Shown here piece by piece: positions 9,001 to 44,200 of a stretch of 64,000 nt of DNA. Position 1 is the stretch's first letter. Each line of letters opens with the position of its first letter. Location: assembly GCA_001724265.1 (NCBI GenBank), contig MEDY01000012.1, positions 62,001 through 126,000 on the forward strand, read 5' to 3'. The notes beneath the pieces were generated by a model that worked only from the letters and a program-made list of their open reading frames with translations, was not told where the DNA came from and searched no databases. The translations under genes were made by a program, and so were the position numbers. Origin of the DNA: Rhizaria sp. SCN 62-66. Its lineage: Eukaryota.

Positions 9001-12000
9001 CATTGCGTCGATGACGTTCTTGCCGCAGTTCCAGCCCGGTGCACAGTTGGGATCGCGCCGGCTCGCGGCAGCGTACAAAGACCCGGCTGCAGCGGTCGCT
9101 AGCGCGGCTGCCGCCGTGCTCTCGCGCGGCGGGCGGCGCCTCACGGTTGCACAGGCGACGTCTGCGATGCTGGTGTCGCGACCGGATCCTGCACTGGCGC
9201 TCCAACCGCTTTCGCGCGACGCCGCGTACGCCAACGCGGTTGCGGTCGATGGTGCGCGACCGTTCGAGTCAGTTGCAATGCCGGATCTCGAGCCGCCGCG
9301 CGACCGTGCCCAGCTCTGGTCTGCAGTGTTTACACACCCCTCAGCCACCACCACTGCTACACACTCATCTAGCTCTGTGCCGACGGCGACTGAGCTGAGG
9401 ATGTCCGCGACCGCTACGACGACACTGTCTGCGACCTCGTCTATCGCAGCGATCGCGGCATCTATGGAGCCTGTGTGCGACCTCGCCGTGTCGTCGCTGC
9501 CGCACCGCGCGATGTGGGCGCCACAGACGCTGTCCGCTGCTGAGAAGCTCTGGCTCCGGACGCGCTCGGGCGACGACACGGCCTCAGTCATTGCCGCAGC
9601 CGCCGAGAACGCTGCCGCTGCTGCAGCCAACGCACTGCAGAACGAGGTTGCTGCGACTGCCGCGGCCGTGGAGGCCACAAACGCCGCACAGATGGCGATC
9701 TGGCGCGCTCGACTGCGTGCGGTGACGACCAATATTTATCAGCAGCGGTGTACTGTGATGTACCAAACATCTTCGCGCCTGCAGCCGACGCCAGCGATGA
9801 TGCAGATGTTCCGCGACTGCGGGCTAGCGACGCGGTTCGAGGCTGTTTCGACCGCAGAATCTACGCTTTCTGAATTCCGCCACAAGCCGACGGGCGATGA
9901 GCTGGTAAACCTTGACCGCAGGCTGACGCTCAAAGATCACGTCTGGGGTCAGACAGGTGTGAACTTTTCGCCGCACAAGTACATGCGTGCATCTGAGTTT
10001 GAAGAAGCGAAGAGGTCAGGATTGATCCCGCCGCTAAAGCCGTATATTCGGGGTATCTCGGGCCGAAAGACGCGCGAACAGGCCGCAGCAGCTGCCAAAG
10101 CCGTCGTTGACGCGGCCGCAGCGGCGAACGGTGACACAAGTAACACCCAGACCAAGGGCGCTAGGAGCTACTTACTTGACTTTGCTGAAGCTGAGATCGT
10201 TGATCCCGAAACTAAGACGAATAACGACAACAGTGACGACAACAGTGATGACGCAGAGCTTGATACAAAGCCGAAGCGCCCCGTCAAGTACTTTGTACCG
10301 TTGACGCCGGACACGTACCGCAAACCGGCGGCACTTGCGCGTGAAAAGGCACTCAAGATCGCGCAAACGTCCCAGTTTCCCGTGCTGCCATTCACGCGCA
10401 TTGTCGTGACAGATACGGGCGTCACGATTCCGCAATCTCCAGTCGCCAGTATGGCCATGCTGCCCCTGTCTGACCAGCGTGTTATTCTGCAGTTGTGGTG
10501 GCGTCGCAACGTGCCGTTCATGCCTTCGACTGTGTACAACTCGGGTGTCTACATCCCCCCCGCAGCCGATGCGTTCACGCACGTTGTCGCACTGCTGAGG
10601 CGCGTGATTGCTGACGGTGGCATCAAGCCCGTGCTTCGCGTGACTGGTGACGCGCTGCTCGGTCTCGCCCCGTCTTTCATGGTGAACGACTCAGTGCCTC
10701 GCTCAGATCGTGGTGCATACCGCGCGCTGATCCAGTACGTGAGCGAGCCCTTCACGGGCGACGGCCGGCCGGTCAACTACCTCCAGTCGGGACTCGCGGC
10801 AACCACGGCGTATCGTCGGTGGCTCCGCTTGCACCGGTTCACTGCTCCTGACGACACGGGAGAGATTTTGCAGCCGCGCTTCAACTCTGGCATCGCGCTC
10901 AACAGCTCTTTGTACCACACATACGGGGACGATTTTGACCCTGACATGGAAGGCACAGAAAGTGAGTACGATATCTCGGACAACACCGACGCCATCGCCC
11001 GTGCCGGTGCGACCGCGCGCGCGAGCGCGGACGCGCGCGCGAGCTCCACAGACGCCGCGGAGACCGCGGGTGCCGTCGCTTCAGTTGAGGCCGTGTGTGA
11101 GGCGGCATCGGAGGCCGCCGGCGACGCCTACGGTGAGGTAACTCGCGCGTCATGCCGTGCCGCGAACGTGGCGGCGTTTAGCGGTGACATCGAACATTTC
11201 TCCGCGCCTTTTGCTGAAGCTGGCGACGACGACTGTTACATTGTCGGTGCCTCCCCACTCAGCACGCTGCCCGGCATCGATGTGGTTTGCGACCCGTCAC
11301 GCTCGCTCGCGCCGATGTACGCGTTCGCACCGCTGCTGCCGCCACTGCTGCGCCAGACACCCGCAGGGGCTCTCGATGTTTCCCCATTGGCAACGGCCAC
11401 AGCCACCGAGCGTGCCACGAAGGCGGCGCTGACTAAAGCTGTGCAGGAAGACTTAGAGTCCAAGAGTAAAGTTGAGACGGCCGCCGAGACGACTGATAGG
11501 TATGCAGCTGCTGCCGCTGCAGCTGCTGCGGCTGCGAGCGCTTCACCCTCTTCATCGACTGATAAAGCTGTTGCTGCTGGCATTGCAGCCGCGACCGCTG
11601 CTGCCGTCGCCGCGACTGCACAAGCTCACGCAGCTTCGCTAGAAGTGTTGCAGCGCGTCGAACGCATGCGTGCGTAGCAAGAGGGCCCGTCCACACCGCG
11701 TGAGATCATGGCTGCAATCCGTGCCGCCGCCGAGACGCTGGCGTGCCTTGAGCGCCATGCACACTCACTTGAGTTCACGGACAGCTTCACGCGCACCGCG
11801 TTTACTAGCGTTGACGAAGCAACCGACGGCGTGCGACGCCGCGCGCGCCACACAGTTCCTTCAGTGTCTCCGTTCCTGGAGTACGAGCGCCGCGCTCTGC
11901 AGAGCGAGTACGAGTCCGCGCGCGCACAGCTTGCGTTGCGCGCGAATGAGATTGGTTTGTCGGAGAGCATGGCTGCGCTCGTCGCGCCTCACGACTCCGT

Positions 12001-15000
12001 TCACCGGTTCATGATGTGCACGCCGCCACATTCTTCTCTTGAGAACGAGTTGGGCTTGCACGCTGACTCGACAGCGTTCAACTACATCAACAATGCGAAC
12101 GCAGGCCCGAACGAAGAGAAGAGTGCGAGCGATCTGAACAAGCTTCGCGATAATAAGCGCCGTGGTGACGATTCAATGACATGCGAGTCGGCACTGACAA
12201 TGGCAGCGTTGGTGACTGAGCGTGAGCGCAGTTTGACCGGGCTGCACACAGCAGTTACGGAGGCAGCCAGGGCTAACAGCGCAGCGTCGCTCGCTAAGAT
12301 CACAGCTGTGAGTGGGACTGCCAACACGCAAGAATCAACTGAACCTGAGGACGAGCATGACATCAACTGCAGCAACAACATTGCCCAGCAGGATGAGACT
12401 AACCTTGAGAGCGATGTCAACACCAACGATAACGAAGAGCACAGTGAAATCAACCCCAAGGATGAGGCTGATGTCTTTAGCGAGAGTAACATCACTAACG
12501 ATGTTAGCCCTGCTGCTACTGCCAGCACCGAGAGGCAGAAGTACGCGCCCCGCAAGCGGACCACCACTCGCACTCTCCCCCCCGTGAGCGCAGGACACGG
12601 CCGTCCTCGCCTTTACCCGCGCGATCCCGTTGTTCTAGTTGACCGAGTCTCCTCAGAGCCGCTGTGGCGGCAGGCCCAGATCGACGCGTGGGACCGCGGA
12701 TACACCCGCGCGACTCAACGCATCGCTGACAGTTTCCGCTCAAAGATTGGCATCGCAAAGAGCTGGCGCTACCCTAGCACGACAGGCAACTCTGGCTCCT
12801 TTGGCCGTAAGAGGGACACATTATCAACCGAGGACGAGGCGGAGATTGACGAGGCTGACGAAGAAGAATTGGAAGAGAGCATCAACGCAGAAGCATTGCT
12901 TGAGGCACAAGAAGCTGAAGATGAGCTTGCCGCGATTGAGGCCGAGGCTGCCGCCGCTGCTCACGAAGATGCTGAGGATAAGACTGACTCGGACGCGCAC
13001 ACCGAGGGCCAGGCTGCAGCTGAGAAGGGCGACAAGCTCACCCCTGAACAGGCTGCAGCGCGCATGCGACACGACCGCCTAGTGGCTCACCGCGCGCGCG
13101 CCCAAAAGGCGGCTCAGAAGATCAAGTTATTGATTGAGCGCGCTGAGTCCATTCATGGGTCACTGTTTCCTGACATTTCGTACGCGCCAGCTCTGTACTT
13201 CGACACTCTTGCACGCATCTTGCTGAACGTCCCCGTTCTTCCTGCGTCCGTTGACGCCGCATCTGTTTGCGTCTCCGCGGCCGCATCGCGTAATAGCGCA
13301 CTCTTGGCGCTTGAACAGCGTCTATCAAACACCATGACTGAGCTCACGGAAGAGGAGGCCGACGTGCTGCCGTTGCTCGCGTGGGTGAACCAGCAGCGCT
13401 CCCAACTCCGCTTTGTGCTGCGCCGCGGCATTCTGCTTCGCGAGCGCGCGTATGCTGAGATGATTGAACGCTATCGTCTGCACCTGCTGCAAGCCATCGC
13501 GTCAGCATGGGATGCGTACGACCGCCATGTCCGCTACCGCGCACAGCCAAAGCCCCAAGCACAGCCTCCCCAGCCACAAGTACAGCAACCAGTTGCGCAG
13601 TCCCTCCCTGTGAAACACGCGCGTCCAGGCCGGCCGCGCAAGCCTGCACCTGTTGTCTCTGACCAGCCTGAACCGAGGGCAGTGGACCTCCAGTGGGCCG
13701 CGTTCGATGCTCTCGAGTGGCCTTCGTCGACTATTGCCGAGCTCACCGCGCTGACACAGCAGTGGTGTCCCGAGATGCCTGTGCTGGCGCCGAGTGCGTT
13801 GGAGCTGGCGTCGATGGAGCGCGCGCAGGCGGCGCTGGTGTGCCGCGGCGGTGGTGTGGCTGTGGTCCCGGCGCCCATGTCGCTTGCCGCACTCGCCAGT
13901 AGTTCTGCTGCTCTGGAGCGTGTTATTATCCCCTCTGTGCGTGCGTATGTCACTGAGGTTTACGCGAAGTACCATCAGCCGTCGTCTTCATCCACCGCGT
14001 ACGCAGTTGCATTTGCGGGGAAGAGCGCTAACAATGACGACACTGACGACGCGGGGGAGGCCAAGAAGAAGAGGAAGTATACCAAGCGGGGCGATTCATT
14101 GGTGGCAAATATGGAGTCAGACACAATCCCGAGCGCGTATTTGGCTTCGTTGACCACAGCAACCGCTCTCTCGAGCAATGCGACCGCGGCTACGTTCCTT
14201 GCCACTGCACCAGGTCTAGCGTCATTTACGCACCACCAATTGCTCACCCTTGCGACGATCATTACGACAGAGACTTTGCGCTCTGCTGGTATCACGGCTG
14301 CAATCTCAGCAACTGCCCCGTACCTTAAGCAGCCGCAGTCGCGCACAGGCCCGACGCCGGTACTCAACTCCGAAGAGCGCGCACTCATGAGTTCTGCAGT
14401 GGTGCGCTCTGGTGATAAGAAGTTGCGCGCCCTCGTTGAAGCCGCTATCGGTGCGGCTGCCGCGCGGTTAACGTCTCCCCTCGACCCCGCCGTTGCTGCC
14501 CTCGCGTCTTCCGCGGTCGTTGCGACTGCGCACGAGCACGATGCGGCAGCAGCAAAGGAAGGCAATGAAGTTAACACGGCTCTGCTGCGCCTTCTTCCTG
14601 GCGCGAGCGGAGCGCAGGGTGGAGCACACATGAGTATCTGGTTCGACGAGCTGCCGCGCTTTGACATCCGTTCGCCTATCGACGGCGTCGCACTAATTTT
14701 ATCGGGCGTCGGCGCCCCTGCGGTGGTGCCACACTCCACTGCAACGAGCACTGAAGAAAAGATGACGGATGACAACAGCCAACCTGCGCGCGCTGGTGCC
14801 GGTGCGACGAATGTGAATGCTACGACAGTGGCTGCGACTGAAATGCTGCGCGAGCGCGTGAACGCGAGCATCAAGGCCGGTAAGGCTAAGAAGGGCAAGG
14901 GTAAGGGCAATTGGGGTAGCAGCACTTCCGCGGGAACAGATGCAGCAAACAACAGTTCTTCCGCCAACAGTTTCGATACTGCGGTGCAAGCTGAGGCGGC

Positions 15001-17146
15001 AGCGCTGAGTGAAGATGTCGCTGCGTACATGCACATGCAGCGTGATATCCGTGCGGTGTTGGCGCTTGTTGAGCGCGAGCGTCTGCGTCAGCGTTACGCA
15101 CCCGCGCACGACGACAATGGTCTGGACCTTGGTCGCGGTCAGGGCACCAACAACGATAATACTGCAGAAGATGGCACAATCGCCGTGCAGAATAAGCTCA
15201 AGGAAGCCGAGGCTCACGTCGCGGCAGTGTTGGTCGCGCTATCAGAGCAACAACAACTCATTGCCGGTCTCTCGACCGATGATGCGCACAATAGCTCTCA
15301 TTCTAACGACGAGTCATCAATCAACACTGTTGCCACCACGCGCAACACCAAGACTGCAACGGATTGCGGCAACGTTGTTAGCACTATCGCCGACACTTCT
15401 TCCCCATTCCGGCGTGCTCTCGATGATCGCTACGCGGCGCTGCCTAGTGCGGTTCGCGCTGTTCTCGGTGTTGCCACAAACACCACCGACACCGATAACT
15501 CGACGTCGAGCTCTCCTGCTCTTGCGGCGCCTTCGCTGTCGCAACAGTCTGCGAACGTGTGGAAGTCGTCTCAGCTGTCGCTGCTGTCGTCCCTGTCCTC
15601 ATTCGCATCGTCGTCACCGTTACTGTCGCCGCTCGCCAAGGCGCGTCGTGGTCTTGTACAGCGTGACCTCGCCGCGAAACTTACTGCAGCACACGGACCT
15701 CAGGAACAAGAGCAGACGTCTTCGACTGTGCAACAACCACTTCCGTCACGCATGCTTCGCACCGCTCTCTCCGCTTTTGGCAACGCCCCCGTAACGGCTC
15801 CTGCGACTCACTCTCTGTCCCAGTATCACTTTACTGACACAATTTTACCTGTGATCTCAACGATTCCCGTGATCACTGTTGCTAAAGAGCTCAAGCTCCA
15901 TTCCGATCGCATCATCGCGCTTCATCGTAGGGAGGCCAACTCTGAGACTGGCGCATCATTCTCAGTTTCCACACTGCACGCGGCTCCTACGTTCTCGCCC
16001 GTTGCCACCGCTGCTGCAGCGGCCGCAGCGGCCGTGGGAGGTAAGGCGCGTCCGGCTGCTGCCGCGAACGCCGCGGCTGCGGCTGCCGCGTCCGCACGCT
16101 CTTTCATGGGCGTCTCAACGTCTCCCGCTTCAGCGACCGCCGCAGATGACGGCGCGGAATCTGGCTACGCCTCTGGCTCCGGTTTTGCATCTGGCTCCGA
16201 CGCCGACTCGAGCATGGGCAGCGCGCTGTCGCCGGGACTGGGGGAGACGGCGCTGCGCGTGTTCGGGAACGAGCTCAACACCATCTTCAGCAGCACGCAC
16301 TCGAACGATCACAGCAAAGCGACTGCGGCCGCCGCTGCGGTTGCGACTGCGCACATGCCGGGCTTTCCCTACATCTCGCCTTCTGCAGCGGGCAAGCGTG
16401 AGTCGGAACAACATGAGCTGACCGAGCTGGGCCAGGGACCGCTGGCGATGACCGCGGCCGAGAACGCAGAGCTGCTTGAGCGCAGGCTTCGCGGGCTGGT
16501 TGATGATGATGACGGTGATTATGTCGCCGACGACATGTTCGCTGAGTTCGATGTTTCTGAGGACGACGATTTTGATCACCAACGCAGCAGCCTCAACTCT
16601 GCGCGCCGCCATTCCCACTCACCCGATCACGGCCACGCCAACTACGGTGGCAAGATCATGACCAGCAGCAGTTTCTATTCCAACAACAGGGTTCGCAGAT
16701 CTACCGAAGGCAATGTGCCGGAGCCCTTCGCTGCTCTCACGGCGCGCGAGAACTTGCAGCTCGCCCAGGCGGCGGCGATGCTGGACCACGCGAACGCTGC
16801 TCGCGACAACGGCAGCGACCGCAACAGCGGCAGCAGCGCTGGCGGGCGCGGTGGCTACCTGGCCAATGGGGTCAACGCACCGGTTGCGGCTGAGGCGGCT
16901 GCTGAGGCTGCTGTGGCCGCGGCGACTGCCGCTGCTGATGAAGTGGAGGCTGAAGCTGAGGCCGCTGCTGCGGAGGAAGAGATGAGGCGTATCGCGAACG
17001 AGTTCAACATCGACTATGCGACTGATATCACCGAAGACAGTTATAACAGTGCCCGAGTTAGCAGTCATTCTAACTTTGGGAGTCGCCGTCACGGCAGTCC
17101 GTCTAGCTTTAGCAGGTACAAGAGCAAGACACAGAAGGATGAGTAA
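2..17146 (+). CDS. Giant low-complexity protein (5' end outside window, >=5,714 aa if the TAG at 11675-11677 is read through); Ala/Ser/acidic-rich with AT-hook-like motifs; function unknown, possibly nuclear
   Basis: Frame is open from position 2. Track ORFs 14..11677 and 11708..17146 are in the same frame, separated only by TAG and 10 sense codons (CAA GAG GGC CCG TCC ACA CCG CGT GAG ATC). Ends TAA at 17144-17146, followed by an AT-rich spacer. Motifs PRGRP (~6170), GRPR (~12600), RPGRPRKP (13622-13645) and KKKRKYTKR (~14065). Confidence 0.7.
1685..1762 (+). repeat. Coding dipeptide repeat (Glu-Ala)13
   Basis: GAR-GCW hexamer units in the frame of the giant ORF. Confidence 0.9.
11675..11677 (+). 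other. In-frame TAG inside giant gene 1 (context ERMRA*QEGPS)
   Basis: GCG TAG CAA; the same frame continues for more than 1,800 codons with no compositional break. Confidence 0.75.
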
Positions 17147-18860: not shown

Positions 18861-19315
18861 ACGATCAAGAAAGGGGATGACAGTGAGTTGCCATAGTGAA
18901 GCCAATCAAGTAATAACATAAATCAACGTTTAAAACACACATACAAAAGCGAAACACATACTTAACCATTCTTTGACGATGTATATAAGTTGGGTATTGA
19001 ATTTTCTTAACACGACCTCTTTGAGGTAACAGAACTCTATCGACTGTTCTCAAAAAATCGTAGCCAGCGGCCAAACAAAATGATTTTCCGAAGCGGGACC
19101 CCCCTGAGTAAAAGGAGACCACTTTGACGGTCATAGAGGCCTAGTTTGAAGCTGTAGTTTTTATCAAGGACAGTTTTATTGCTTTATTATTTCCTGGCAC
19201 GACGACTATCTTTGAATGGGTCACGCTTGTGCCGCTATGGAGGTGCCCTGGTGTCTCCTTTCCACTCTCGTCTCAGTCTCACTCTTTTCTCCTTGTCACC
19301 TGCCCTGTCCCGTAG

Positions 19316-25656: not shown

Positions 25657-26195
25657 ATGTCCACCCATTCCGGTCCCAACGCCGCCGCAGCCGCTGCGGC
25701 CGCCGCGGCCGTGGGTAGTATTCCCGCGCCCGCGCCCGGCTCGCCCCCCGGGTCCGCCCCCAGGTCCCCGCCGCGCCCGCCGCGCTCACAACTTCAGTCA
25801 GGGGCCTTTGCCGCCGCACACCCGCACGCGCACCCGCACAGCGCTAACTACACAAACGCTAACGCGCAGCCCGCAGTCGCATCTGGCTTCAGTTCTGGCG
25901 CTGGCGCTGGCGCTGGCTCTGCTGCGGCCACGGGCGCCTCTCCGAGCCCTGCGTACGCGCACGTGAGCGCGCTGACGCTCTCGACCGGGCCCAGCTCCCG
26001 CTCCGTCTCGGCTGCTGCGGGTGATACTGCCACAACGGCTCACGCCGACCCAGCGGGCAGTGGCGCGCACGCGCTCGCGCCGGCACCCGTGACCGCGCCC
26101 ACACACATGCCCGTGCCCGACTCGACCCCCGCGTCGGGCTCCGCTCTGGGCACTGCGACCGCCTCTGCCTCAGCCTCAGCATCAACCTCTGCTGT

Positions 26196-26245
<50 letters not shown>

Positions 26246-29200: not shown

Positions 29201-32200
29201 CGCCGTCTAGCGGCGCGTAGGCCGCGGCGCACGCGGGCCGCGGCAGAGCTCGCGAGCCGGCGTTCACGATGACCTCTCGGGCCGCTGCGGCGCGCGCCGC
29301 CGCGCTGGGTCTGCCCCCCGTGGCCGCGGCGGCGTTTGTGGACCCGACCAACGTGCGCGCGGCCATGGCGGCGCTGCTGACGGCCCCCGTCGAGGCGCTG
29401 TGCGCGATGTACGTCGAGGCCCGGTGTCCGCTGATCCTGCAGCAGCCTGGGACAGGCATTGCCGCAGTCGACGATGACGACGACCACCGCGGCAACGGCG
29501 GCAAGAACAACGGCGCGGACGACTCTGTATCTGCCCATGCTGGTGCTGATGCGAAGCTTGACACGCCCGCGGTCACCGATCTCCCACCCACCCCGTTCTA
29601 CCCCGGCGCGGCCGACGGCAACAATAGCAGCGTGGTGACCGGCAGCGACTCGAGCGGCTGCACCCCGGTCACCGGCTCCGTGCTCAGCGACAGGATCTAC
29701 GGCGGGGCGGCCCTGTCGACGAAGAACACGCCCCAGATTCCGCCGGCCGCGCTGGCGCTTATCTCGCACGCGCAGGTCATCGTGCGCCGCCACCATGGCG
29801 CCTACAGCGCGATGCGGCAGGCGCCCGAGCCGATGCTGCCCGCCCTCACGGTTGCGGATCGGCTGTCGATGCAGCGCCGCGCCGCGCGCTTCGCCGACTC
29901 GCCCATGGTTGTCATCGTGCTCACGGTCGTCGTGCTGTGGACGATCATCATGTTCCCCATTCAGTTCGCGTATCTGTCGAGCGACGCGGACCGCATTGTG
30001 TTCCGGCTGTACGGCGTTTCGTTCGGCCTGCTCATTGTCGAAATGGTTGTTTCCATCTTCGGCAGTCCGTTCCGCCCCCACTTCTGGTATAACTTCATCA
30101 TCGACGCCATCGTGCTCTTCACGCTGCTCTTCCAGCTCCCGTCCTTCGCGACGCTGCTCATCGGCGTGCCCTGGGCCGCGATCGCGGGCCGCTTGGATAC
30201 GCCGGGCGATTTCCTCCGCTACGAGAGCGCCGCGGGCGTGTACTACAACGTGTGCCAGGCGATGCGCTACATCCGCCTCGTGCGCATGCTGCGGCTCGCC
30301 GGCTACGTCGAGGCTGCGCAGACGTGGCTCGCGCGCAAGGCCAGGGACCGCCAGCGCACGGCTGCGGGCAAGGCGGCGGCGACGGCGGCGACGGCGGCGA
30401 CCACGGCGGCGACTGCGGCAGCGGAGGCCGAGGCCGTGGCGAAGGCGGCCGTCGCGGCGGCCACTGGAGCGTCGAGGAAGGACGCCCCCGTGAGCGACAG
30501 TGACAGCGAGTCCGAGGTCACGACCGCTGCGGCCTCTGCCGCCGCCGCGGCTGCTGCTGCGAACAAGGCTGCTGCGGCTGCCAATGTGAGTGCCAAAGCT
30601 GAGCAGCAGCAGCAACAGCAACAGCAAGTGCAAACTGGCGTTGTTTCTGTGGCACCCGCGTCACCGCCCGCCGCGGCTGAAACTGCGGCGGCCAGCGCGG
30701 CTGCAGCAGCTTCCGCCGCTGCAGGTGCCAACAGCGGCATTCTGAGGAGCCCTGCCGGCTCTGGTCCCCACGTCACCGGCGTTAGAAGCGACGGCGACGC
30801 TGCGACCAGCGGTGATTTTGACCATGTCACCAGCGACAGCGACAAGCTTGCTCCGATGCCTGCCCCCGGCATCATCTTGCCCCCAACTCACCGGCAGGCG
30901 CGTAACGCAAGCAACACCGCGACTATGGGCATGGCGCACAGCACTAGCAGTCGCGGCGATAGCCACGCCAGCTTCGGCGATCTCAGCTCCCGCGGGGACC
31001 ACAGCGCCCGCGACACGAGTACGCGCGGCGACGTTGAGATGGCGGCGCTTAAGACCGCGCGCGCCACTGCAACCGGTGCCAATGCTTCTGCTGCTGACAA
31101 CATCTCCAGCAAAAATGACAGCCACAGCGTCAGCCGCACGAGCTCTCACAAGCGCAACAACGCGCGCGACGCGGCATCAGCCAACAATGAGGCTGCTGCC
31201 AACGCAGCACAGCAGCACCAGCCGCGCGCCGGCGCTGACTCCGCGACCGTCGGCGCCGAGGCCGTCCCCGCGTCGCTGCTGCCTGTGCTGTCCGCGGGCC
31301 GCCCCACGCTGAGCAGCCGCGAGCTGCACCTGGCGCGCCGCCTTGCGCGCCTGCGCCTGCGCTCGCAGGCCGTGCTCGCACACGCCGAGGCCGCGGCCGC
31401 CGGCAGCACCACGGGCCCGCTCGCGCGCCTGCCGCTGCCGCAGCTGCTGCCGATGCCGCTGGGCGGCGTGTCGCTGCCGCTGGGCCCGCTCACCTCGGTC
31501 GGCGCGGGCGCCGGCGTCGGGGCGACCGCGAGCGTGTCGCTGCTCATGCCGCCACCGTCGCACGCTTCGCACGCTTCGCACGCGCCGCACAGTCTGGCGA
31601 GCGCGAGGAGCGACCTGCCCTCCGACCGCGAGGCCGGCGACTGGGACGGCGACGGCGACTACTACTACGACGACAACGACGACGACGAGCCGCAGTACCG
31701 CATGACGCTGCAGCCGCTCACCGTGTCCACGCTCATCTCCTGGGGCGTCGACGCCATCGCGGCCAACGCGCTCCGCATGTCGGACACAATCGCGCTGATG
31801 AGGCCGCCGACGCGCAGCATGTCTTCTGCGCGCGCCAACGAGGCGGACGCGGCCCGCGCTGACAGCAGCAACACTACCGGCCACGGCAGCGGCGCCAGCG
31901 CGCGCGCCCGCGAATCGAAGCAGCAGCAGCGCCTGCGCCGCCGCCTCGCGCGCTCGCTGCGGCGCTCGGGCGCGGTGCCCCGCGCATCGGCCTCCGCGCT
32001 GGCGGCCGAGGCGGGCGTGCTGCAGGCCACTGCGTCGCCCGCGGGCACCGGCCTCTCCCTGTGCCTACTCGAGGCCGAGGGCGCGGCGGGCACTGACGGC
32101 GAGAGCAACGTCGACAGCGACGCCGTCATCGGCGACACTACTGTCGCGGGCACCGGCGGCGGCGGCGGCCGCGGCAGGCACCGTGGGCGCCGCGGCTCCG

Positions 32201-35200
32201 GGGGGCCCGGATCCTCCGGCGACGAGTCCGCGCTCGCGGCGGCGACGGAGACCGCGGTGGACGCCGCCGCCAAGGCACACCGGGCCGCCGTCGCCGCGCG
32301 CGAGGCGGCCGCCAAGGCTGCGGCGGCGACCGCTGCGGCCGTGGCGGCCGGCGTCGGGCGCAGACGCGCTGGCGCGCACAGCAACAGCAGCAGCAGCAGC
32401 AGCAGTGATGGCAGCGGCGAAGAGAACAGCCGCACGAGCAGCACGACCGTCGCCGGCGGCGTCCCCGGCGACGACAACAGCGACGTGGATTCGCTGCCGC
32501 GCCGCGGCCGCCGCAGCAAGAGCTCGACCACGTCCTCTCCTTCGTCCGAAAGCGACGCTGTCGCCGCGGCGGCTGCGGCGGAGGCCGATGCGGCGGTTAA
32601 GGCCGCCGTCGACGCCGCCGCGGTCGCGAACGCCGCTGCGGCCACCGCCGCCGCCGCCGCTGCTGCCGCGTCGACTGCCGCGACTTCTCGCTCAAACAAC
32701 AACAATACTAAGAACGGCGCGAATAACTCGAGCGCTTCAGCTTCCACAGCGAACGCCTCTCCGGGCGGCGCGGTAGGCAGCAGCGGCAGCGGCAGCAGCG
32801 GCAACGGCGCGGAGGATCCCGCGGCCGCGTCCGCCGCCGTTGCCGCCACGCTAGTGTCTCTGTGCCGCGACCAATCCGTGCTAGAGGAGTCGTCGTCCTC
32901 GCGCATCGCGGTCGAGTACGCGCGCGGCTACCTGGATCGCCTGCAGAGCGGGCCGCTGCCCGGGCTCGCAAGGTGGGTCTACGGCGGCTTCCTGCCCGCG
33001 CTCGCGCCCGGGATGCTGCCGCTCGCCTCGGCCACCGCGGCTGCCACCGTCGTCGTCAGCGCCTCGGTGGGCGCGCCCAGAGAAGCGGATCCCGCGAACG
33101 ACGCCGTCGCCACTGCTGGCACCGGCTTTACGAGCCCCGCACCGGGCGCTGGCGCCATCCCGGGCGCTGGCTCTGGCGCCGGCCTTGACGCCCTCGCCGG
33201 CGCGGGCGGCAGCATCACCGTGCACCGGCCGCTGACCGAGAGCGAGATCACGAACTTTGCGGCCACGGCGGCGTATCTGCCGCCGTGGGTTCGCCGCGCG
33301 CTGCTGCTGCCGCTTGCCCACTCCAGCACTGCGCCCACCGCCGGCGCCGGCGCTGGCGGCGTCGCGACGTCGACGGTGAGCTCCAGCTTCAGCAACATCC
33401 ACACCGCGGGCGGCGGCAACGCCCTCGGCGGCGGCGCGGGCGCTCGCGGCACTGGCAACGGCGGCGGCGACGGCCACCACCACCACGGCCACCACGGCCA
33501 CCACGGCAGCTCTAGCCACACCGACAGCGCCGCCATCGCTGCCGACAGCGACGCCGCTGCGCCCCCGCCTCACCACTATGGCGAGACGGCGCGCGAGGTC
33601 CGCGCGGCGCTGTCGCGGCTCGTGTACGCGGACGTGCGCATGCGCCAGCTGTGGCAGGCGGTGCGTCTCACGTCTCGCATCTCGCGTGTGCTGGCCTCGA
33701 GCATCAGCCTCACCACGAACACGCGCGCGCAGGCGCAGGCCGCTGCCGACGCCGCTGCCGCTGCGGCCGCAGCTGCTGCCGCTAAGGCCGCCGCAGATGC
33801 CACTGCTGCTAACGAGAGTCTTTTGGCTGCTCCCTATGCTGCGAAGAAGCGTGCCTCAGTCATGTTCTCGTCCACAGTCACCGGTGCCACTGCCGCGAAC
33901 AGCGGCGGCAGCAGCAACGGTAACAGACTGTCTGCGGCGCAGCAGGTCAAGGGCGGTTTGCCGCAACAGCAGGCACAGCAGCAACAGCATCAGCAGCGTG
34001 GTGGCGGCCCGAATCCCGGCGTGCCATCGCTCGGGGCTCGCACGTCGTCAGCGCCCTCGGCGACGTTCTCTCTGGCTTCTCTGTCTCCATCTGCCGCGTC
34101 ATCAAGCCTCGCCGTGGTGACGACGACGGCCGTGGCCCCGGCGCCGAGCGTCAGTGCCAGTGTCACCTGCAGCAACAACAACAGCAGTGTGGTGCCGTCG
34201 CTGCGCGCCGACCCTGGGACGGGGCAGCTCACCGTCTCCTGGTGTCCGCACTCGCTGCAGGCGGCCGGCATGGCGATGCTCCAGCGGCTGTTGCGGCAGC
34301 ATTGGCGGCGGCAGTTCTACCTGGCCTACACCGCGACGTGGGCGCAGACGCTGCCAGTGGCGCGCGCGTGGTACGAGGCCAACTACCCGCTTCCGACGCC
34401 CGCGCTTGACTCGGGCAGTAACAACGGCGGCAACCTGTGCGGCACCATGGACACTGACTTCAACATCAGCAACAACAACAGCTACCCGGGCTTCGGCGCG
34501 GACGATGCGTGCGCTGCCGAGGTCGCCGCGGCTGCCGCGACCGGCGTCGCCGCTGCCATGAGCGCGGGCGCGGAGTTCTCTTCGGCCGATAACGCCGCTG
34601 CCGCCGCCGCCGCGGTGGCCGCCGCGCCGCAATGCGAGGCTGACCCGAAATCGACATCGGACGCGAACCTCAGAGCGCGCGCAGGCTCCAGCTCCAGTTC
34701 ATCGCAGCAACAGCAGCTGGGAGGACATGAAAGCAGTAGAATGTTGCCGATGAACCCGAACTTCAGGCTGCGGCTCCCCACCGGCTCCTTCACCTTTGCG
34801 TCCTCGCTCTCTCCCGCCTCCGCCACCTCTGGCTCCGGCTCGGGCTCCGCCTCGGCGTCAGGCCACGGCAGCGCCGCTCCGACCGGGGCCGCTCTGCCCA
34901 GCCCGGCGGGGTCGTCCCGGCCGCCGGGGGGCTCGTTCCCGCCCAACGCCAGCGCCGGCAGCGGCGGGCCTGCGGCCCCGCAGGTCGTGGTGGTTTACCC
35001 GCCGCACCCGAGCCTCCCGCTGTCGCCGGCGTCTGTGTCGTCGTACTCGTACACGTCCTTCCACCCGCACCCGCTCATCACGCCGCGGCCGCGCGCGCTC
35101 ACGGCCTCCGTGTCGCACGCTTCCCAAGCCCCTTCCTCGGCCGCGACGGCCGCTGACACGAACTCGCAGGCCACGCAGGCCGCCGCCGACACTGCATCTG

Positions 35201-38200
35201 GCGCCAGCTCGACCGCGACTGCTGCCGCTGTGGGGGTAGGCATTATGATCGATGCGACGGGCTCCGGCGCAGCCACCACCGCCGGCGGCGCCGCGAGCGT
35301 TGCCCCGGGCACCGGCGCGGGCGCGCGGGGCCGGTCGTTCTGGGCAACGCCGCCGCAGCATTCGCCGCCGCAGCCGGATCAGCACGCGGCGCCGCACCCG
35401 CTGCTGCCGCCGCAGCAGGCCGGCAGCCCCAGCGGCTTCCTCGCCGCCCCGGGTGCGCTCGCCACGCCCCGCGGCGCCGCAGGCTCAGCCACCGCCTCCG
35501 CGGGCTCTGGCGCGGCCTCAGGCTCGGGCGGCAGCAGCTCGTCGGTCGGGGCGACGACCGGCGGCAGCCCGGGCTTCCTACTGCAGCCACCGCCGCCGCA
35601 CATGATGCTGCATTCATTGCACTCGCCTTCTCTCAGCGGCTCTGCTGCCGCCATGACCGCTGCGTCGAGTGGCTTCGGCCTCTCCCTCGCCCCGCCCACA
35701 GCGTCCGCATCAGCTTCCGCCTCCGCCGCTGCCGCCGCTGCCGCCGCGGCCGCATCTGGCGCCGCTGCCGGCGACGGCGACGGCCCCGCGGCGGGCGCGA
35801 GCGCCGGCGCCGGCCGCGCGCGCGCACTGACCCGCGCGATGATGCGCATGCTGTCCCCGCGCGCGCAGTCGACGATGAAGGCGTTCCACTCCCCGCGCGG
35901 CGCCAACGCTTTCGCCAAGGTGGTGACGGCGGCGATGGCGGCCGCGGCCGCGGGTTCGCCCGTGCGCGCGGCCGCCGCGACGCCCGGGTCCGCGATGGGG
36001 ACGCCGCTGCACGACTCGAACCTCAGCAGCGTGAGCAGCAGTAGCGTCACCATCCACGCGCGCAGCCCCGCGGCCGCCGCGGCGTCGCCGAGCGCGGTGG
36101 GCCCGAGCGAGGCCGCCGCTGGTGCTGCCGGTCTCCGCAAGTACCCGAGCGACGCGCTGTACACGGCCGCCGCGCAAGCTAAGGCGCAGGCCCAGGGCTC
36201 GCCGGGAACGCTGCCTTCCGAGTCGCCCGCTGCGTCCATGTCGTCGCAGTCCTCACAGTCTCAGTCCCAGTCCCAGTCGCAGTCGCCGCAGAATGCGCTG
36301 TCATCACCGAGCAACAACACGGCTGTCTTCACCCCGACCATTGCTGGCGCGACTGCAGCCATCGGGGGCGATGACACCCCTGCTTCTACTGCCGCTGCTG
36401 CCGCTGCTGCCGCCGCGGCCGCCGCTGCTGTGGCCGCCGCCGCGCTGCCGCCACTGACTGTGAGCTCGCTCCCCGCGCTCAGCGCGCACGTTGTCGCCGT
36501 GGCAGCCACCACGGTCTCGCGCTTTAACCAAGCGCTGCCGGGCCACGGCGCCGCCGCCGCGCGCGCCGCGGCCGAGGCGGCGACCTCGGAGGCCTGGGCC
36601 ACCGCGCATCGCCGCCACTGCCGCCGCATCGCTGCCGCCGCGCCCAAGGGGCATCTCGCGGTCGTGCACCCGGCACCCCCGCATCTCTACTATGGCGGCG
36701 GGGCTGCGGCTAGAGCGCCCGTGCCTATTTACTCTGCTGGTACTGGTGGTGGGAATCTGGCGAGCGAGCTCGATGCTGCCGCTGCTCCAACTATCGCGGC
36801 CGCGCCTGTTGCGACGGCGAGAGTCGGAGATACCGCTGCTGCTGCGGGCGCAACTGCCGCTGCCGCTGCACCTGGTGCTGGTGCTGCGAGTGGCGGACTG
36901 GCCTCGCTCCCACACCCGCCGAAGCTGCAGCTGCAGCCATCGACCGAGCTGACTTCGTTGGCGCCCTCACACACGAGCGCGAACACACTGGCAACGAGTA
37001 CCGGCACCATTGCAGGCATGAGCCCTGACCACAAGTCCCCCACCGCCCTCTCGCAGACTATCGCCAGCACCAACACGAGCTTTGGCGCTCAGAACGGCGG
37101 TCAGGGCAACGCGGCGATGACAACTCTGTCGCCGACTGCGTCTGGCGGCACCCACACCGGCGCCGGCGCTGGCGCGCGATTCGCGTCGCCGTTCACGCCG
37201 AGGCGCGGCAGCACGCACAGCGCCGCTGCCGCCGCGAGTGCAGGCGCCGCTGCTGGCGGGGGTGTGCCTCCGCCGGTCATCCGCATCCACACCGTCGAAG
37301 ACTGCACCACCCAGCCGACCGGTGCGCCGGAGCGTGCACAGACTGCGAATGAGGACGATGACGAGCTGACTCGCGCAGTATACGACAAGACCAAGCAGAG
37401 TGCCGACGACAAGGACGAGCAGGGCGAGGACCAGGGCGACGACGACGGTGCGCAGCTTGGACTCGGCCTTGCTGACATGGTTACTTACCACAACAACAGC
37501 ACGAGTGGTAACGCCAACAGGAAGAGCAAGACTAAGGGCCGTATCATGAGCGCGGGCGCCGCCTCGAGCAACACGGCTGCTGGCGGTGAGACTTCTGGAG
37601 TCAACAGTGCGCGCGTCAATCAAAGTAACCGCGACCGCGCGACCGAGGACGATGGCGACAAGGAGGATTTCGCCCAGGATTCGCTGTTGGCGTCTTTTTC
37701 ACAGCGCCACAAGCTCTCTGTGATGGTCGGACTCGACGACCACCACGGCGACGATCACGGCGAGGACCACGGCGACGAAGCGCACCACGGTAGCGCGCAT
37801 GCTAGCTCGGCCGACGCGGCGGGCGCGGCGCCCTCGGTGGTCGCTGTGCCGCTGCACCGCGGCGCGACCGCGCGGTCCGTGCTGGTGAACGTGGCGTCGA
37901 CGCTGCCGGGGTCGCCCAAGAACGCGACCAACATGTCGACCACCACCGCGCGCACGGCCACGACGAGCGCGCACAGCGCCAACTCCACCATCACGCGACA
38001 GAGCACCTACGCCAGTACAGCCAAGACCGTCGGCTCCGCCAGCACGACGGACCCGAGCAACGCTGCCACGGTAGCCGCCACCGCGGGGGCTGCTGGCAAT
38101 GACGCTGTGCCGGAAATTGCGACCGCGCGCCGCCGGTCTTTGTTTGACCTGCAGACCAAGGCGCGCGACGAGCTTAGCTCGAGTCGTCTCGCAGCGCCTT

Positions 38201-41200
38201 TCGCGGCAGATGCGGCGAACCCGGCCTTGGCGTCACGGCCTACCAGTAGCAGCAGCAGTAGCAGCAGTGGGAGCGGCGGCGTCGCCGGCTCTGACAGTAC
38301 CAACCCACAGCGCAGTCTGTTTTTGGAGCAGCAGCGCATCATCTATGGCAACAACACCCCCGTCATCATCGCGACTGCGACTGGGAACACCCCCCCCAAG
38401 CCCGCTCTCCACGCCAGCACTAGGACAAGAGCCGCTGACTCTGTCCATGTCTCAGCCCCGATCCCTGGGATCCCGCGAGCTGCCGCGGTCACTGAGGCTC
38501 CTGCGGTCACAGCTAGCAACACCGCATCAGCGCCGGCTTCCAGCCAGGCTAACCGCCGCCGTCGCCACCGTCGTCCGGTCACCGTCGTCCCTCTGCCCGC
38601 TCCCGTGCCAGTCACCTTTCGCCGGCTTCCGGCCTCCTTTCTGGCGTCTCTGATCCCCGCCGTGTCCCGCGCCAAGCGCTACGCGGGCGTCATTGCGACC
38701 GCGGAGGAGGCCGCCGCAGCCGCAGCCGCCGCGGCCGCCGCATCTGCGGCCGCGGCGAGCGCCGCTGCGGCAGCTGTGGCTGACGCGTCCGTGAACGACT
38801 CGTGGCGCGAGGCCGTGCACGTGGCGGCGGAGCTGGCGTCGCGGCCGGATTTCCTGGGCGCGACTCCGTACTCGCTGCTGTTGCTGGGCACGCTGGCGAC
38901 GCTGACGCCTACGGTCGTCCCAGCGCCGTTCTTCCGCCACAGCCACAACGCGCACGCTGAAGCGGCCGGCAGTAGCGCTGGGATGGCGCCCTCACAGACT
39001 GCGGGCGCGGGCGATAGGTCGAGTCTGCGCTCTGCCGCTAATGCCGTCATCAACAGCAGCAAGAACGTGAATGCCGCGGGTGGCGCGCGCACTGCGACGG
39101 CGTCGAGTCACACCACGTCTTCGAGCGGTGCTGGCTCCACGGCTTCCGGCGCAAGCCAACAGTCGCCCCCCGCTCTCCAGTCCCCGCCCGTGTCGGTCCC
39201 GTTCAACTCTAACTACGGCGTCGTGACTGTGGGCGAGTACGGCTCGCGTCCCGGCTCGCCCGCCATCGCCCTCGGTCCTTCCGGTACCGCTGGCGGCGCA
39301 GTCGGCGCTGGCCACGGCCAGCAGCAGCAAATGGGGCCGCAACAGGGCTACGGGGGGATGTACACCGCCCGCGGCAGCGTCGTCAGTGTCGGCGGGCTTT
39401 CCCTGCACAACATGGGAGCGCCCAGCGAGTTCGACGGCGCGCCGAACGAGAACGGCAACAACAGCAACAACAGCGGTCAGAACAACGGCTCGTCTTCGTC
39501 TTCGTCGTCGTCAGCCGCATCGACCGCCACAGCCGTTCCTGCCCTCTTGCAGCAGCAGCCGTTGCCGGGACAGGGCCAGGGCCACGGCGCGAGCGCCGTG
39601 TCGCACCGCTACGCTCGCTTCGGTCCCGCGCCCATCATCGCCTCCACCGGTGCCAGCCCGGGCCACGGGCCCAGTGGCAGCGGCAACGGCGTGAGCGCGC
39701 TGGCGCTGCAGCCGGCGCCGCACACGGCGCTGATTCCCGTGCCGTCGGTGCTGCACCACCTGCCGCTGTCGACGCACGCGTCGGCACTCTCGCTGCCGCG
39801 CCTGGGCTACCACAAGAAGGCGTATTCGCTGACGACGCACCCGTTCCTCACGCCGCAGGGCAGCACGACAGGCCACCGCGGCAGCCAGCTGTCGGACCAC
39901 CTCACGCGCCTTGCCACGGTGTGCGTGCTCATCGTGGCGTGCCTCGTGCCGCTGATGGTGCAGTCGGACCCGGACATGGGCGTGCGCCGCGGCGTGTGGA
40001 TGCTTATCACACTGGCCGACTCGTCGATGCTCGCCTCCTCGGTGGCGCCGGAGCTGCCAGTCATCCAGCCCGTCGCGGACTCCGACGTTGACTCCAACAG
40101 TGCGAGCGCGAGTTCGAGTCCGAGTGCTGCGACCAAGAGCTCGCGGGACAGTGTGAGTGATGTGATGGAGCTCATGCAGTCCGCAATGCTCGGTCTCCCT
40201 CTCGCGCAGGGCGTGTTTTCGCTGTCCACGCGCACTGTCGCCGCTGATGCCGGAGACTCCGACGACGTAACTTATCTCAGCAGCGAGGATAGTGATGCCC
40301 AGAAACCACGATCGTCGCTGGTCAGTGTGTCCGCGTCACGCGCCCTTGCGCGCTCGCTTGCAGCGCTCACCCCAGTCCCAGTCGCGACTGTCGCATCAGC
40401 AATTTCCGACGCCGTAAATGCGGACACCGCGTCGATGACACCTGTGATGGGCCAAACCGACCAGAAGCGCCACGCCAGTCGTGCTGTGTTGAAGCGGTTG
40501 TGGCGTCTCGCGATGCACCCGCCGTCGGTTGTGCCTGCCGTCATGACTCCTCCTGCCGCCGGACGCAGTGTCGCTGAAGACGCTGCGAGCAAGATTCACA
40601 ACACGAGCACGGCAGCCAACGAGGATGACGACGACACGTGGGAGTGGGTTGTCTTGTCAAACAGCGGAGACGCGTTTTCACCCTTGGCCAACTACAGTGG
40701 CACAGGAACTGTGAACAGTCCTGAGTGCGTCGCTGTTGCGGCCTACATCACCGGCGCCGGCGGCGTCCTCGCCATCACCACGCGCACCGCACCGCAGTCT
40801 CAGTCCCAATCCCCGCGGAGCACGACCAGTCCCGAGTACACACTTCCCGGCCCCGGCGAGCCGATCGTGGACGAGGCCACGTGGTGCGCGATTCTGGAGA
40901 CGTTTGTGGCCCAGTTTGCACACAACCGCACGCCCGTTTTGTGGCTTGCCGTGAGCGGGAAACACGCCCAGGTAGAGTACATGCGAGGACAAACGGAGCT
41001 TACGACATTGTGGTCCCTTTCCGGGCTTCCGGGGTCTGTCACGGGGGCGTGGACCACCGCGTCCGCTCTCGCGGCACACGCGGCCGCTGCCGGTGCGAGC
41101 GCGCTTAAGACATCGTATGCCACAGTTGCGGGCGCGGTCAGGTGGGCTGCGGGGGCGCCGTTAAGCACTGACGATTACTATCGTGCGACAATCGATAGTG

Positions 41201-44200
41201 GCGTCACGAGTGACACCAACGCCGCTTCCGATGGCGTGGAGACGAGTTCAGCGAATGCGACTGAGAATTCGGATTCGAACATCACGGAGAATAGTGAGCC
41301 GGAGCAAGCGAGTGTTTATCTGGTTACACTCACGCGTCGCGGTGTGCGCACGGTGATTGCGACGACTGCCACATCACCTGAGGCCGCCAAGGCTGCCATG
41401 CTGTCACTGCCTTCGCTTGCCCCCCACTATGAGCAGCAGCAGCAGCAGCAGCAGCAAAAGGAGGACGAACAGCGCCTGCGTGCGGATAACATCAACGCAA
41501 CTCTGTCTGAGACCGACGCCGATGACGAGCCTACAGTCGGTGCCCGCGTCCCATCCCTGCCCGGCATCGGCAGCCCTAACACGGACGTGACGGTCCCTGA
41601 CACGCCTTTGTTCAACTCTCCCGTTCCTGCTCTGCGCCACGACCGCTGCGTCACCGCGGTCGGTCTGCTTTACACAAACTCGAACATGAAGGGCATCACA
41701 TTGCCGAGACCGACGTCGCAGAGCGTAACACTTGAGCACGCGATGAGCACACTTAATCCCGATCCGAGTGTTGTGGCGCAGTCTGATGAGACGGAGATGA
41801 TGGCGAAACGCAAGCGCGCTGCGATTGCGCTTGCCGAGCTTGGTGCTTTTGCTCTCCACACCACCGCCGCTGAGTCTAGCACAGAGAATGGAGTTCTCGC
41901 CACCTCTGCTGCGAATGCCCGCGCTACCGTGTCCCCTCGTGCATTCACCGTTTCTGGCGACGGTTTAGGCAGTGTCATTTACTCCACCACTCCGCTGCTC
42001 GCCGCCATGGCGCCGTTTGCCATCGCCTCGTTCATCGTCATCATCGTCGTGCTCTTGTTCGCCGGCCTCAAGTTCCACGCACTCAGTGAGACCCTCGTCG
42101 TCCGGCCGCTGCGCAACATGATGATGCTCGTGCGCGAAGTGCAGGATAAGCCGCTCACGTTCCACAAGCAGCAGCAGCGCCAGCCGCCGCCGGCCACGGC
42201 TGCCGCGGATGCGCCCGCGACCGCGGCCACGGTCAACGATACCGGTCTACTGGAGCGCACCCTTCTCAAGCTTTCGCTGCTCACACAGGTCGGTTTCGGC
42301 GAGGCCGGCGCGCGCATCGTCGCCACTGCACTGCGGCCCATCACGCAGCGTGCGCGCGGCGGAGCGGCGGCGACGATCGCGGCGACCAGCGCGATTGCGA
42401 CCGCGGCTGCGGCGTCGTGCGCGAATACCGCGGCGCTGTTTTCACCGTCGTTCCTTGCTCTCGCGGACGCGGTCGGTGCACGCATTGGCGAAGGACCACA
42501 ACCCATCATTTCTTCGAGCGAGAACAACAAGAACATCAATTGCAACGCCAGCAACATCGCCAACTCCGGCCCGGCTCCTACCGGCTCCGCTGGTGCGACT
42601 GGGCTCGCGAGCAGCGCCTCTGGCGCCACTGTGCGGGCCGGCGGCGCGCTCACCGTCGTCGCCCCGCCCACAGAAGCCGTTGTGCGCACTACGGGCTCGT
42701 TCCAGGCACCGATCTTTGCCTCCGCCGCCGCGACTAGCGCAGCTGCTGCCGCGGCTGCCGCGGCCACCGCGAGTGTGACTGCACAGGCTGCCGCTGCAGG
42801 CGCCAACGCAGGCGCCGCGACTATGTCCGTCGGCACTGGCGTCGGCGGTCTAGCTAGAAGCGCGGGCACTTTGGACATCACTCAACAGGGTCGCAAGGTG
42901 CTTGCGATTCTTGGTTTCTGCGACGTGCGTCAGTTCACGGACGCGACCGAGTACCTCCGTGACCAAGTCATGATTTACGTCAACGGTATCGCCGACATCG
43001 TCCACGAACAGACCACTGAGTGCCTCGGGTTCCCGAACAAGAACGTCGGTGACGCCTTCTTGCTGGTGTGGCGTCTGCCCGAACAGCTCTGGCGACACAC
43101 GCCGCCGGCGAGCCCGCAGCAGTCGTCCTCGTCGGGCTCCTCGTCGTCCTAGAACCTGTCGTCCTCGTCCTCGTCATCGTCGCCCTCATCGTCGACGTCG
43201 TCGTCGGAGAGCGAGACCGAGAGTGACGAGCGTGATACCGTGTACAGTTACATCACAAACAAGTCTGACACTGCTACGTCGACCGGCGCCGCGAACGGGC
43301 GCCACAGCCGCAGCGCAACAAAGGCGGCTCGCTTGTTCTACTCGAGCCGCAAGGCGAACAACACCATCGTTCCCGGCATGAACAGCCGCGCTGCCGCCGC
43401 TTTGCGTGCCAGCGGCGGCGGTGATCTCCGCAGCAACGGTGCGAATGACAGCAGCGACGATGGCGAAGGCGCTAGTGAGAGCGAGAGCACCCAACGTCGC
43501 CGCGCCCGTCGCACTCGCGTCGTCGCGGCCCGCGGCCTCGCCCACTGGCGCCACCACCGCACGCGCCGTGCGGCCGCGATCGCCGCTGCGGACGCAGACG
43601 CTGCAGCGTTCGCGGCGGCCGCGGCCGTGCCTCGCGATGACTCGAATCCGAACCGGAACAGCGGCGCTCTGCCGAATAACTCTCCAGTCGCTGTCACGGG
43701 GGCTGTTGACGGCGATGACTACGTTGGGCTGGCTGATAGTAGTGCCGGCGAGTCGATCGAGGCCCTTCTCTCCGGCAGCAGCGACAGCGAAGACCCGTAC
43801 GTGGAGGCGACTGAGGACGGAGATCTGGCCGTCATCTTTGGATTTGGGCTGCCTACCGTCACCTCAACCCCTGCAACCCAGTCTACGACTGCGCCGAGTC
43901 CTATCGCCAGCTCTGGCACGAGGAGCACAAGGGCCAACTCGACGGCCCTCGCGCTGGCCAACAACACTGCCAATGCGCCAACGCGCGCCGCACTGACGCC
44001 TGCTGCAGCGTTCGAGCTCTACACCGAGCACTACGCGCGCTTGCTCCTTGCGCAAAAGGTCATTTACGCCGCGCCCCAGCGCTTTATGGCCAGCGCGCGT
44101 GCCGTGGCCTATCAAAAGCTCGCGCGCAGCGACGCGGTGCGCACGGGCAAGCTCGTCGTTTCGGCCCCACCGACCGTCGCGCACTCGTGGGCTCAGTCGC

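Follow-up and report, generated by a model that had tools for sequence, protein, structure and literature searches.

The subject of this analysis is a 64,000 nucleotide (nt) stretch of DNA, referred to throughout as the window, which corresponds to positions 62,001 to 126,000 of contig MEDY01000012.1 (assembly GCA_001724265.1, filed as Rhizaria sp. SCN 62-66). Two giant reading frames on its + strand are interrupted three times, in each case by the codon TAG (TAG1 at 11675..11677, TAG2 at 29218..29220, and TAG3 at 43150..43152), and the last of these lies within the catalytic domain of a conserved gene. It is tentatively proposed that UAG is read as an amino acid throughout this organism. UAG would then not end translation, UAA and UGA would stay as the terminators, and the decoding would most simply be due to a transfer RNA (tRNA) with the anticodon CUA, together with weakened recognition of UAG by eRF1. 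The codon would be extremely rare and tolerated only in the disordered, low-complexity stretches of giant genes, and this rarity and confinement suggest either that the decoding of UAG is inefficient or that the change is recent. We infer that ribosomes pass the TAGs, that they would do so across the organism, that TAG1 and TAG2 behave as TAG3 does, and that the tRNA and eRF1 would be responsible. With this one assumption, translation of UAG would cover the presence of TAG3 in a catalytic domain, the other two TAGs, the absence of any other defects, and the lack of TAG at all seven gene ends.

Three TAG codons in two giant reading frames

A first-pass annotation of this DNA had claimed that three TAGs were the sole interruptions of two giant frames, and re-translation bears this out, the bases at 11675, 29218, and 43150 having been re-read as it gave them. 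The first of the frames is made up of the stop-to-stop open reading frames (ORFs) 2..11677 (3,891 codons, open at the 5' end of the window) and 11678..17146, here called ORF1, and the second of 25639..29220, 29221..43152, and 43153..55860, here called ORF2. There are three internal stops, all of them TAG, in the 15,787 codons and 47 kb of these frames, which have no internal TAA, no TGA, and no frameshifts. TAG1 is in the context GCG TAG CAA GAG, TAG2 is codon 1194 of ORF2 in the context GCG TAG GCC GCG, and TAG3 is codon 5838 of ORF2, within a poly-Ser tract, in the context TCC TAG AAC CTG.

Coding appears to continue beyond each of these codons. Over 150 codons to either side of every TAG, frame 0 has the best codon-usage score and no stops, and the other two frames contain 0 to 8 stops per 150 codons. 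The sequence 3' of the TAGs has a G+C content (GC) of 0.61-0.79 and 1,822 to 4,643 open codons, in keeping with the earlier description of the same frame and an unchanged GC-rich, low-complexity composition past each TAG. The open frames around the TAGs span 1,193 to 4,643 codons, which is far beyond chance. The loci recovered by the scans of metagenome and genome contigs were used as a control for long ORFs split by chance. Several of the GC-rich ones have runs of at least 250 codons split by a single stop, with all three kinds of stop represented, and no ORF in the control loci exceeds 2,438 codons. Taken together, the results for frame, codon usage, and post-stop composition confirm the observation of the three TAGs.

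TAG3 lies within a channel-cyclase gene

From its sequence, ORF2 is predicted to encode a fusion of an ion channel with a class III adenylyl cyclase, 10,073 codons in length. A channel-cyclase family profile was built on 20 homologues, all full-length and 754-1,448 amino acids (aa) long. These were collected with the first catalytic half only, so that the match of this half is there by construction and the profile matches after TAG3 are independent. ORF2 matches the profile colinearly, with three pieces before TAG3 and two after it, all on the + strand. Those before TAG3 are the transmembrane domain of a voltage-gated-type ion channel (29866..30558, aa 1410-1640; profile 27-196, E 1.7e-16), the conserved linker of the family (41971..42336, aa 5445-5566; profile 346-472, E 1.3e-22), and the first catalytic half of the class III cyclase (42853..43092, aa 5739-5818; profile 472-551, E 3e-44), which carries FCDVRQFTD ... 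GDAFLLVWRLP. Those after it are the second catalytic half (51601..52014, aa 8655-8792, GFGLHVGWMVEGAIGS ...; profile 571-714, E 1.4e-46) and the TPR-like conserved C-terminal end (55612..55860, aa 9992-10071; profile 741-819, E 4.6e-14), which finishes at the TAA at 55858.

TAG3 is 20 codons past the first catalytic half, between profile positions 551 and 571, and the second catalytic half and the C-terminal end are 2,800 to 4,200 codons 3' of it. Since the family profile matches on both sides, and since positions 551-571 are those of a loop, TAG3 is internal to one conserved gene. The codon is contained in a giant low-complexity insertion into this variable loop of the catalytic domain (43093..51600, + strand). 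Judged from the family, the part of ORF2 after TAG3, with its second catalytic half, is predicted to be indispensable for a cyclase. The identity of this gene is the best argument for translation of UAG, and the introns of the window, described below, are the best control; neither was part of the first-pass annotation.

Individual searches are in general agreement with the profile. A search with the 91 residues that immediately precede TAG3 gave 1,531 homologues at E<=0.001 (best identity 63%), and one with the second catalytic half gave 187 (best identity 58%), many of which carry PF00520, PF00211, and PF26726. The named homologues of the second half include the Cryptosporidium 'membrane associated adenylyl cyclase with 6 transmembrane regions' and proteins of Toxoplasma, Neospora, Vitrella, Amoebophrya, Plasmodiophora, and Stentor, and the named cyclase relatives, Mataza sp. 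and Ploeotia among them, are scattered over Rhizaria, euglenids, and alveolates. The second half scores 0.91 against a guanylate-cyclase cluster of the Atlas and gives weak adenylyl cyclase matches in the PDB (E 0.055-0.92), where a sequence search with the first half found no cyclase match. Pfam's own cyclase model reported neither catalytic half of ORF2 alone, and the channel domain matches Pfam Ion_trans (E 2e-05, 24.3 bits) just below the 25-bit cut-off of that database. A Pfam scan of eight of the homologues returned Guanylate_cyc for four, Ion_trans for two, TPR for two, and no family for three. An exact look-up of the pieces of ORF2 with six choices of start gave no match, which does not amount to absence as the start choice was probably wrong.

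ORF2 shows a conserved enzyme expanded to an extreme degree by low-complexity sequence. Between GDAFL and GxG[LM]HxGW it has a spacer of 2,891 aa, as against 59-201 aa, uninterrupted, in 20 out of 20 homologues. About 3,100 aa separate the channel from the next conserved block, the spacer sequence being rich in Ala, Ser, Gly, and Gln.

Gene ends and termination at UAG

The claim that no gene in the window ends in TAG, and that the ends are followed by AT-richer spacers, also holds. Four of the seven gene ends are TAA (17144, 20922, 55858, 56161) and three are TGA (17504, 21507, 23821). The 200 nt that follow have a GC of 0.28-0.49, and the next in-frame stop is 5 to 32 codons on. One of the seven, that of the gene at 23819-24640 on the - strand, was accepted on codon composition alone. 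The earlier proposal of UAG as a possible sense codon is thus supported in part, by the position of TAG3 inside a conserved gene and by the seven ends without TAG, a number too small to decide which terminators the genome uses.

If the standard code applied and UAG were an ordinary terminator, low-level near-cognate readthrough at the three sites might be sufficient for giant proteins that are rarely needed. The great rarity of in-frame UAG, found at three sites only, would suit such leaky termination, as would the absence of a dedicated tRNA within the window and the CAA after TAG1, which is the first half of CARYYA, the readthrough context of the tobacco mosaic type. The three 3' contexts differ, however (CAAGAG, GCCGCG, and AACCTG), as had been recognized from the start, and there is no shared readthrough motif; nor do the 120 nt from each TAG fold better than shuffled controls (z 0.75, 0.59, and -0.24), so no downstream RNA structure stands out. 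Basal readthrough of stop codons is usually well below 1%. ORF2 requires two successive readthrough events, so that their yields would multiply, and TAG is found at none of the seven gene ends. Leaky termination under the standard code is considered unlikely.

The TAG sites in other sequencing runs

Contigs of four runs (three studies, 2016 to 2025) were aligned at 90% likeness to the segment 28500-45000, which covers TAG2 and TAG3. A 500 nt contig from the polyadenylated (polyA) RNA library X5, which was made in another study than the likely source run and dates from later, matches 42933-43432 without a difference or a gap, showing TAG3 to be present in that contig, unspliced, and not TGG. 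TAG3 is not an assembly error. TAG2 is covered by an 889 nt DNA contig in runs X2 and X3, which spans 28852-29713 with no differences. There is no alternative letter at TAG2 or TAG3 among the differences listed for the four runs; contigs hide rare variants, and among the pieces listed X4 crosses neither site, X2 and X3 do not cross TAG3, and X5 does not cross TAG2. Of the three sites proposed earlier for checking against reads, TAG2 (X2/X3) and TAG3 (X5) are intact in contigs, within 28500-45000. Although the samples and studies of runs X2 and X3 differ on file, the two have near-identical record numbers and depths and identical listed contig pieces. They probably represent a single data set that was filed twice and are counted once here.

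For TAG1 the indication from other contigs is indirect. The protein called from the ATG at 11708, downstream of TAG1, is found on four contigs, and on a fifth as a variant with one difference in 1,812 residues. These records are the expected product of a table-11 gene caller if all of the contigs have a stop ahead of that ATG.

At 42179, 4 bases are missing from a single contig in each of X4, X3, and X2, at a depth of about 4 and against summed depths of 31-396. A summed depth this high points to cross-matching with repeats rather than to a frameshift allele.

Evidence against translation of UAG and alternative explanations

Several observations, presented in this section, weigh against translation of UAG. 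UAG accounts for 3 of the 15,787 codons of the giant genes (0.019%), where it is some 50 times rarer than CAA, and the other genes of the window have no in-frame UAG at all, so that there is no regular use of the codon across many genes. The seven gene ends are few, and for none of seven to be TAG has a P of ~0.08-0.2 at an assumed TAG share of 20-30%. All three TAGs are in low-complexity, unalignable sequence, and no conserved column backs any amino acid; that the sites lie in unconserved sequence, and that the amino acid could not be assigned from them, had already been stated in the first-pass annotation. Continuity of a gene across an in-frame UAG is backed by homology at TAG3 only (one of the three). 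With regard to the sequencing runs, the X5 contig comes from an RNA library but its RNA origin is putative, and X2 shares its study with the likely source run.

It had also been cautioned that TAG is the likeliest product of a random nonsense change in DNA that is GC-rich at third codon positions, and this can now be given a figure. Given the codons that make up the giant ORFs, a nonsense change at random would produce TAG with a P of 0.64, and three out of three with a P of 0.26. At 0.64 for each change, that all three stops are TAG is weak evidence and not significant in itself. In addition, the strain differences listed for ORF2 in the contigs of X4 and X2/X3 are T>A at 31525, T>M at 34127, T>A at 34165, and L>F at 44047. 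As all four are nonsynonymous, amino-acid constraint on the low-complexity parts of ORF2 is not evident. At 90% likeness, some of these strain differences may stem from other loci or organisms.

The share of 0.64 for TAG would suit a standard code with the TAGs as fixed nonsense mutations, both giant genes having recently been inactivated or truncated and now starting to decay, which is possible but somewhat unlikely. Of the 142,083 possible single-base changes in the giant ORFs, 3,301 create a stop (~2.3%), and three stops would therefore need only ~0.3% neutral divergence, at which the lack of frameshifts would be only moderately unlikely. The position of all three sites in unconstrained low-complexity sequence, the four nonsynonymous differences, and the bloating of the giant genes, about tenfold relative to their homologues, would all be compatible with decay. 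What does not sit well with it is the state of ORF2 beyond TAG3, where the conserved parts are kept as well as those before it (E 1.4e-46 as against 3e-44; best identity 58% as against 63%), and the 47 kb in which there is neither a frameshift nor a TAA or TGA. Furthermore, the TAGs are fixed, there being no alternative allele among those listed in the four runs, and the locus is present in the polyA RNA library, including sequence 3' of TAG3. Decay would also mean that a thriving organism had taken three inactivating hits, each independent of the others, in two neighbouring genes.

The rarity of UAG could be taken in another way, namely that the codon is nearly unassigned, having been given up as a terminator, being almost absent from reading frames, and yet still being translated. 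This is regarded as a doubtful possibility, in a lineage not known for changes of the code. If true, such a nearly unassigned UAG would represent an intermediate of the kind that codon capture would naturally pass through, here in a nuclear genome.

TAG1 and TAG2 have no homology bridge and are followed by nearby ATGs, so that they could be the true ends of upstream ORFs. ORF1 exceeds 5,714 codons in total, with its 5' end open at the start of the window. The part before TAG1 (2..11674, + strand, 3,891 codons) encodes an Ala/Ser-rich orphan protein, and the part after it (11678..17146, + strand, 1,822 codons) runs to a TAA at 17144 and an AT-rich spacer. The GC at third codon positions (GC3) of ORF1 is 0.64-0.66, far below that of the other genes in the window (0.77-0.89). 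ORF1 gave no family in Pfam, its residues 3250-3700 gave no usable match in the Atlas, and no homologue spanning TAG1 was found in 8,000 candidates scored with a 600-aa query that had X at the TAG. The ATG at 11708 is the next in frame after TAG1, 10 codons downstream.

In the case of TAG2, the next in-frame ATG is at 29269, 16 codons downstream. The part of ORF2 before TAG2 (25639..29217, + strand, 1,193 codons, first ATG at 25657) is either a low-complexity N-terminal extension or an upstream ORF. It has a GC3 of 0.82, and it has a sub-threshold low-complexity match in Pfam (Serglycin, E 0.0086). TAG2 is upstream of all of the conserved channel-cyclase parts, the profile match beginning 216 residues after it, and neither the profile nor the searches found any homology bridging it.

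It has to be considered, then, whether the TAGs are real stops, with TAG1 and TAG2 ending upstream genes, the next genes starting at the ATGs at 11708 and 29269, and TAG3 splitting the cyclase into two polypeptides that assemble. The closeness of the two ATGs and the short N-termini of the channel-cyclase homologues, with every conserved part being downstream of TAG2, would favour separate ORFs, but at 15-25% of places chance alone would put an ATG that near. The intervening spacers, at 30 and 48 nt, would be GC-rich and coding-like, unlike the AT-rich ones after the seven accepted ends, and that both downstream ORFs should share the upstream frame has a P of 1/9. The first ATG past TAG3 comes after 75 codons, and a split class III cyclase is found in none of the 20 homologues. 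Separate ORFs are therefore very unlikely to account for the three TAGs.

The TAGs might alternatively be removed or changed in the RNA, by atypical GC-rich introns or by editing. The organism does splice, as can be seen in the control gene of the window (56159..63999, - strand), a multi-pass membrane protein with four spliceosomal introns, at 62231-62105, 61998-61848, 58390-58274, and 57598-57488 (127, 151, 117, and 111 nt, - strand). With the four introns removed, this gene reads as one open frame, 2,444 codons long, up to a TAA (56161-56159). The introns have a GC of 0.36-0.43, GTRCGY donors, and YAG acceptors. In the giant + strand genes there appear to be no introns, and no AT-rich island was found within 400 nt of any TAG.

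TAG1 overlaps a perfect consensus donor, GTGCGT, with an in-frame acceptor, TTCCTTCAG, 195 nt downstream at 11864, and this too is a point against the translation of UAG at that site. Each of the TAGs ends in AG and could in principle close an intron. The TAG1 candidate intron (11670-11864) has a GC of 0.65, in contrast to that of the verified introns, and it is coding-like, with frame 0 the best and without a stop; GTRCGY occurs by chance 1.4 times per kb in the giant ORFs. TAG2 has 27 GT..AG candidates, none of which has a consensus donor. The sole consensus donor for TAG3, at 42925, would delete the conserved FCDVRQFTD...GDAFLLVW half, and an intron from there is contradicted by the unspliced X5 contig, in which the A of TAG3 is also unchanged. 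The splicing or editing that had been entertained earlier is thus not borne out at TAG3 in the X5 contig, and the intron at TAG1 is kept as a candidate. As an explanation for the three TAGs, removal at the RNA level is considered improbable.

Translation of UAG throughout the organism continues to be the reading that is tentatively preferred, and explanations other than those considered here are together given very little probability.

The organism and other features of the window

The source is a eukaryote, as judged from the presence in the window of a gene with RCC1 repeats and of the intron-bearing membrane-protein gene. The closest relatives of the RCC1 gene have 55-57% identity. The window is 65% GC and has several genes, its contig being at least 156 kb long. 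The DNA is present in metagenomes from bioreactors, wastewater, and activated sludge, from several studies between 2015 and 2025, and in those of bioreactors and wastewater the organism is plentiful enough to be assembled and tracked over multiple years. A scan of metagenome contigs with the RCC1 alignment gave 20 loci, the best at 33% identity, with no close relative, and a scan of genome contigs for close relatives gave four loci, all of them bacterial. No tRNA genes or Rfam families were found in the 64 kb window. In the literature, with supplementary files outside the search, no paper was found on this organism or on a change of UAG in a wastewater protist.

The control gene has a weak match to a sterol-sensing domain (E 0.00038), which is under the Pfam cut-off, and it contains a 106 nt micro-exon at 62104-61999. 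The TAA of the gene at 19158-20924 (+ strand) is directly followed by GTACGT, which is the intron donor consensus, and then by a short repeat of the CAGACG type. A hairpin in 20922-21041 (+ strand) folds better than 194 of 200 shuffles (z -1.93), and this segment may be an intron in the 3' untranslated region or a terminator-like structure.

Comparison with known systems

The architecture of ORF2, with its channel, linker, class III cyclase, and TPR-like end, is colinear with that of the channel/adenylyl-cyclase fusions of alveolates and other protists. Those homologues are 754-1,448 aa in length, whereas ORF2 has 10,073 codons, a 2,891-aa spacer in its catalytic domain, and two in-frame TAGs. 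Whatever the code, a channel-cyclase with a catalytic-domain insertion of 2,891 residues is an extreme case. Gene calling with table 11 or the standard code splits the giant genes into pieces.

Programmed readthrough of stop codons is known in viruses and in Drosophila. As in those systems, a single UAG is followed here by a long open frame, but here the 3' contexts differ and no structure downstream exceeds the shuffled controls, and what lies beyond the TAGs, 1,822-4,643 codons long, takes in essential catalytic parts. The genomes of ciliates are rich in AT, and the phyllopharyngeans have gene-sized chromosomes, in contrast to the 65% GC of the window and the several genes on its contig. UAG reassignments are reported in phyllopharyngean ciliates (PMC11687900), and in another ciliate UAA and UAG are reported to have different meanings (PMC10553269). 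The likeness to the present case is that the meaning of UAG shifts independently of UAA.

Ambiguous codes, in which a codon may be either stop or sense, have been described for Condylostoma and karyorelict ciliates (PMC4967479, 10.1101/2022.04.12.488043) and for Blastocrithidia (PMC12153298). These share with the window the presence of a stop codon inside genes, and position-dependent termination of their kind would let UAG terminate elsewhere. In-frame stops are abundant in such codes, as described there, and involve several stop codons, whereas here there is UAG only, and it is very rare.

In every nuclear code that has changed UAG and kept UAA, UAG is to our knowledge already common, and we know of no observation of the early steps of such a reassignment. 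Codes of this type are known from few lineages (PMC5304391). They include Rhizaria sp. exLh, where UAG is Leu, and Iotanema spirale, where it is Gln, with UAA and UGA as stops (PMC5304391). For exLh, 384 in-frame UAGs were reported in 71 genes, many of them at conserved Leu columns, together with 56 UAA and 15 UGA terminators; UAG was rarest in highly expressed genes, and inefficient decoding was proposed (PMC5304391). As in exLh and Iotanema, only UAG interrupts the frames of the window, and the seven gene ends within it are UAA or UGA (4 TAA, 3 TGA). Unlike exLh, the window has UAG at 3 of 15,787 codons and at no conserved column, which is a further difficulty for translation of UAG. If UAG is sense here it must be strongly avoided, at 0.019% of codons as against 384 UAGs in 71 genes. 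A UAG that is sense and yet hardly used would show an early or a low-efficiency stage of reassignment. If confirmed, this would be a further UAG-only reassignment, in a GC-rich, intron-bearing, uncultured protist, and the trait distinguishing it from the others would be that the reassigned codon is almost unused.

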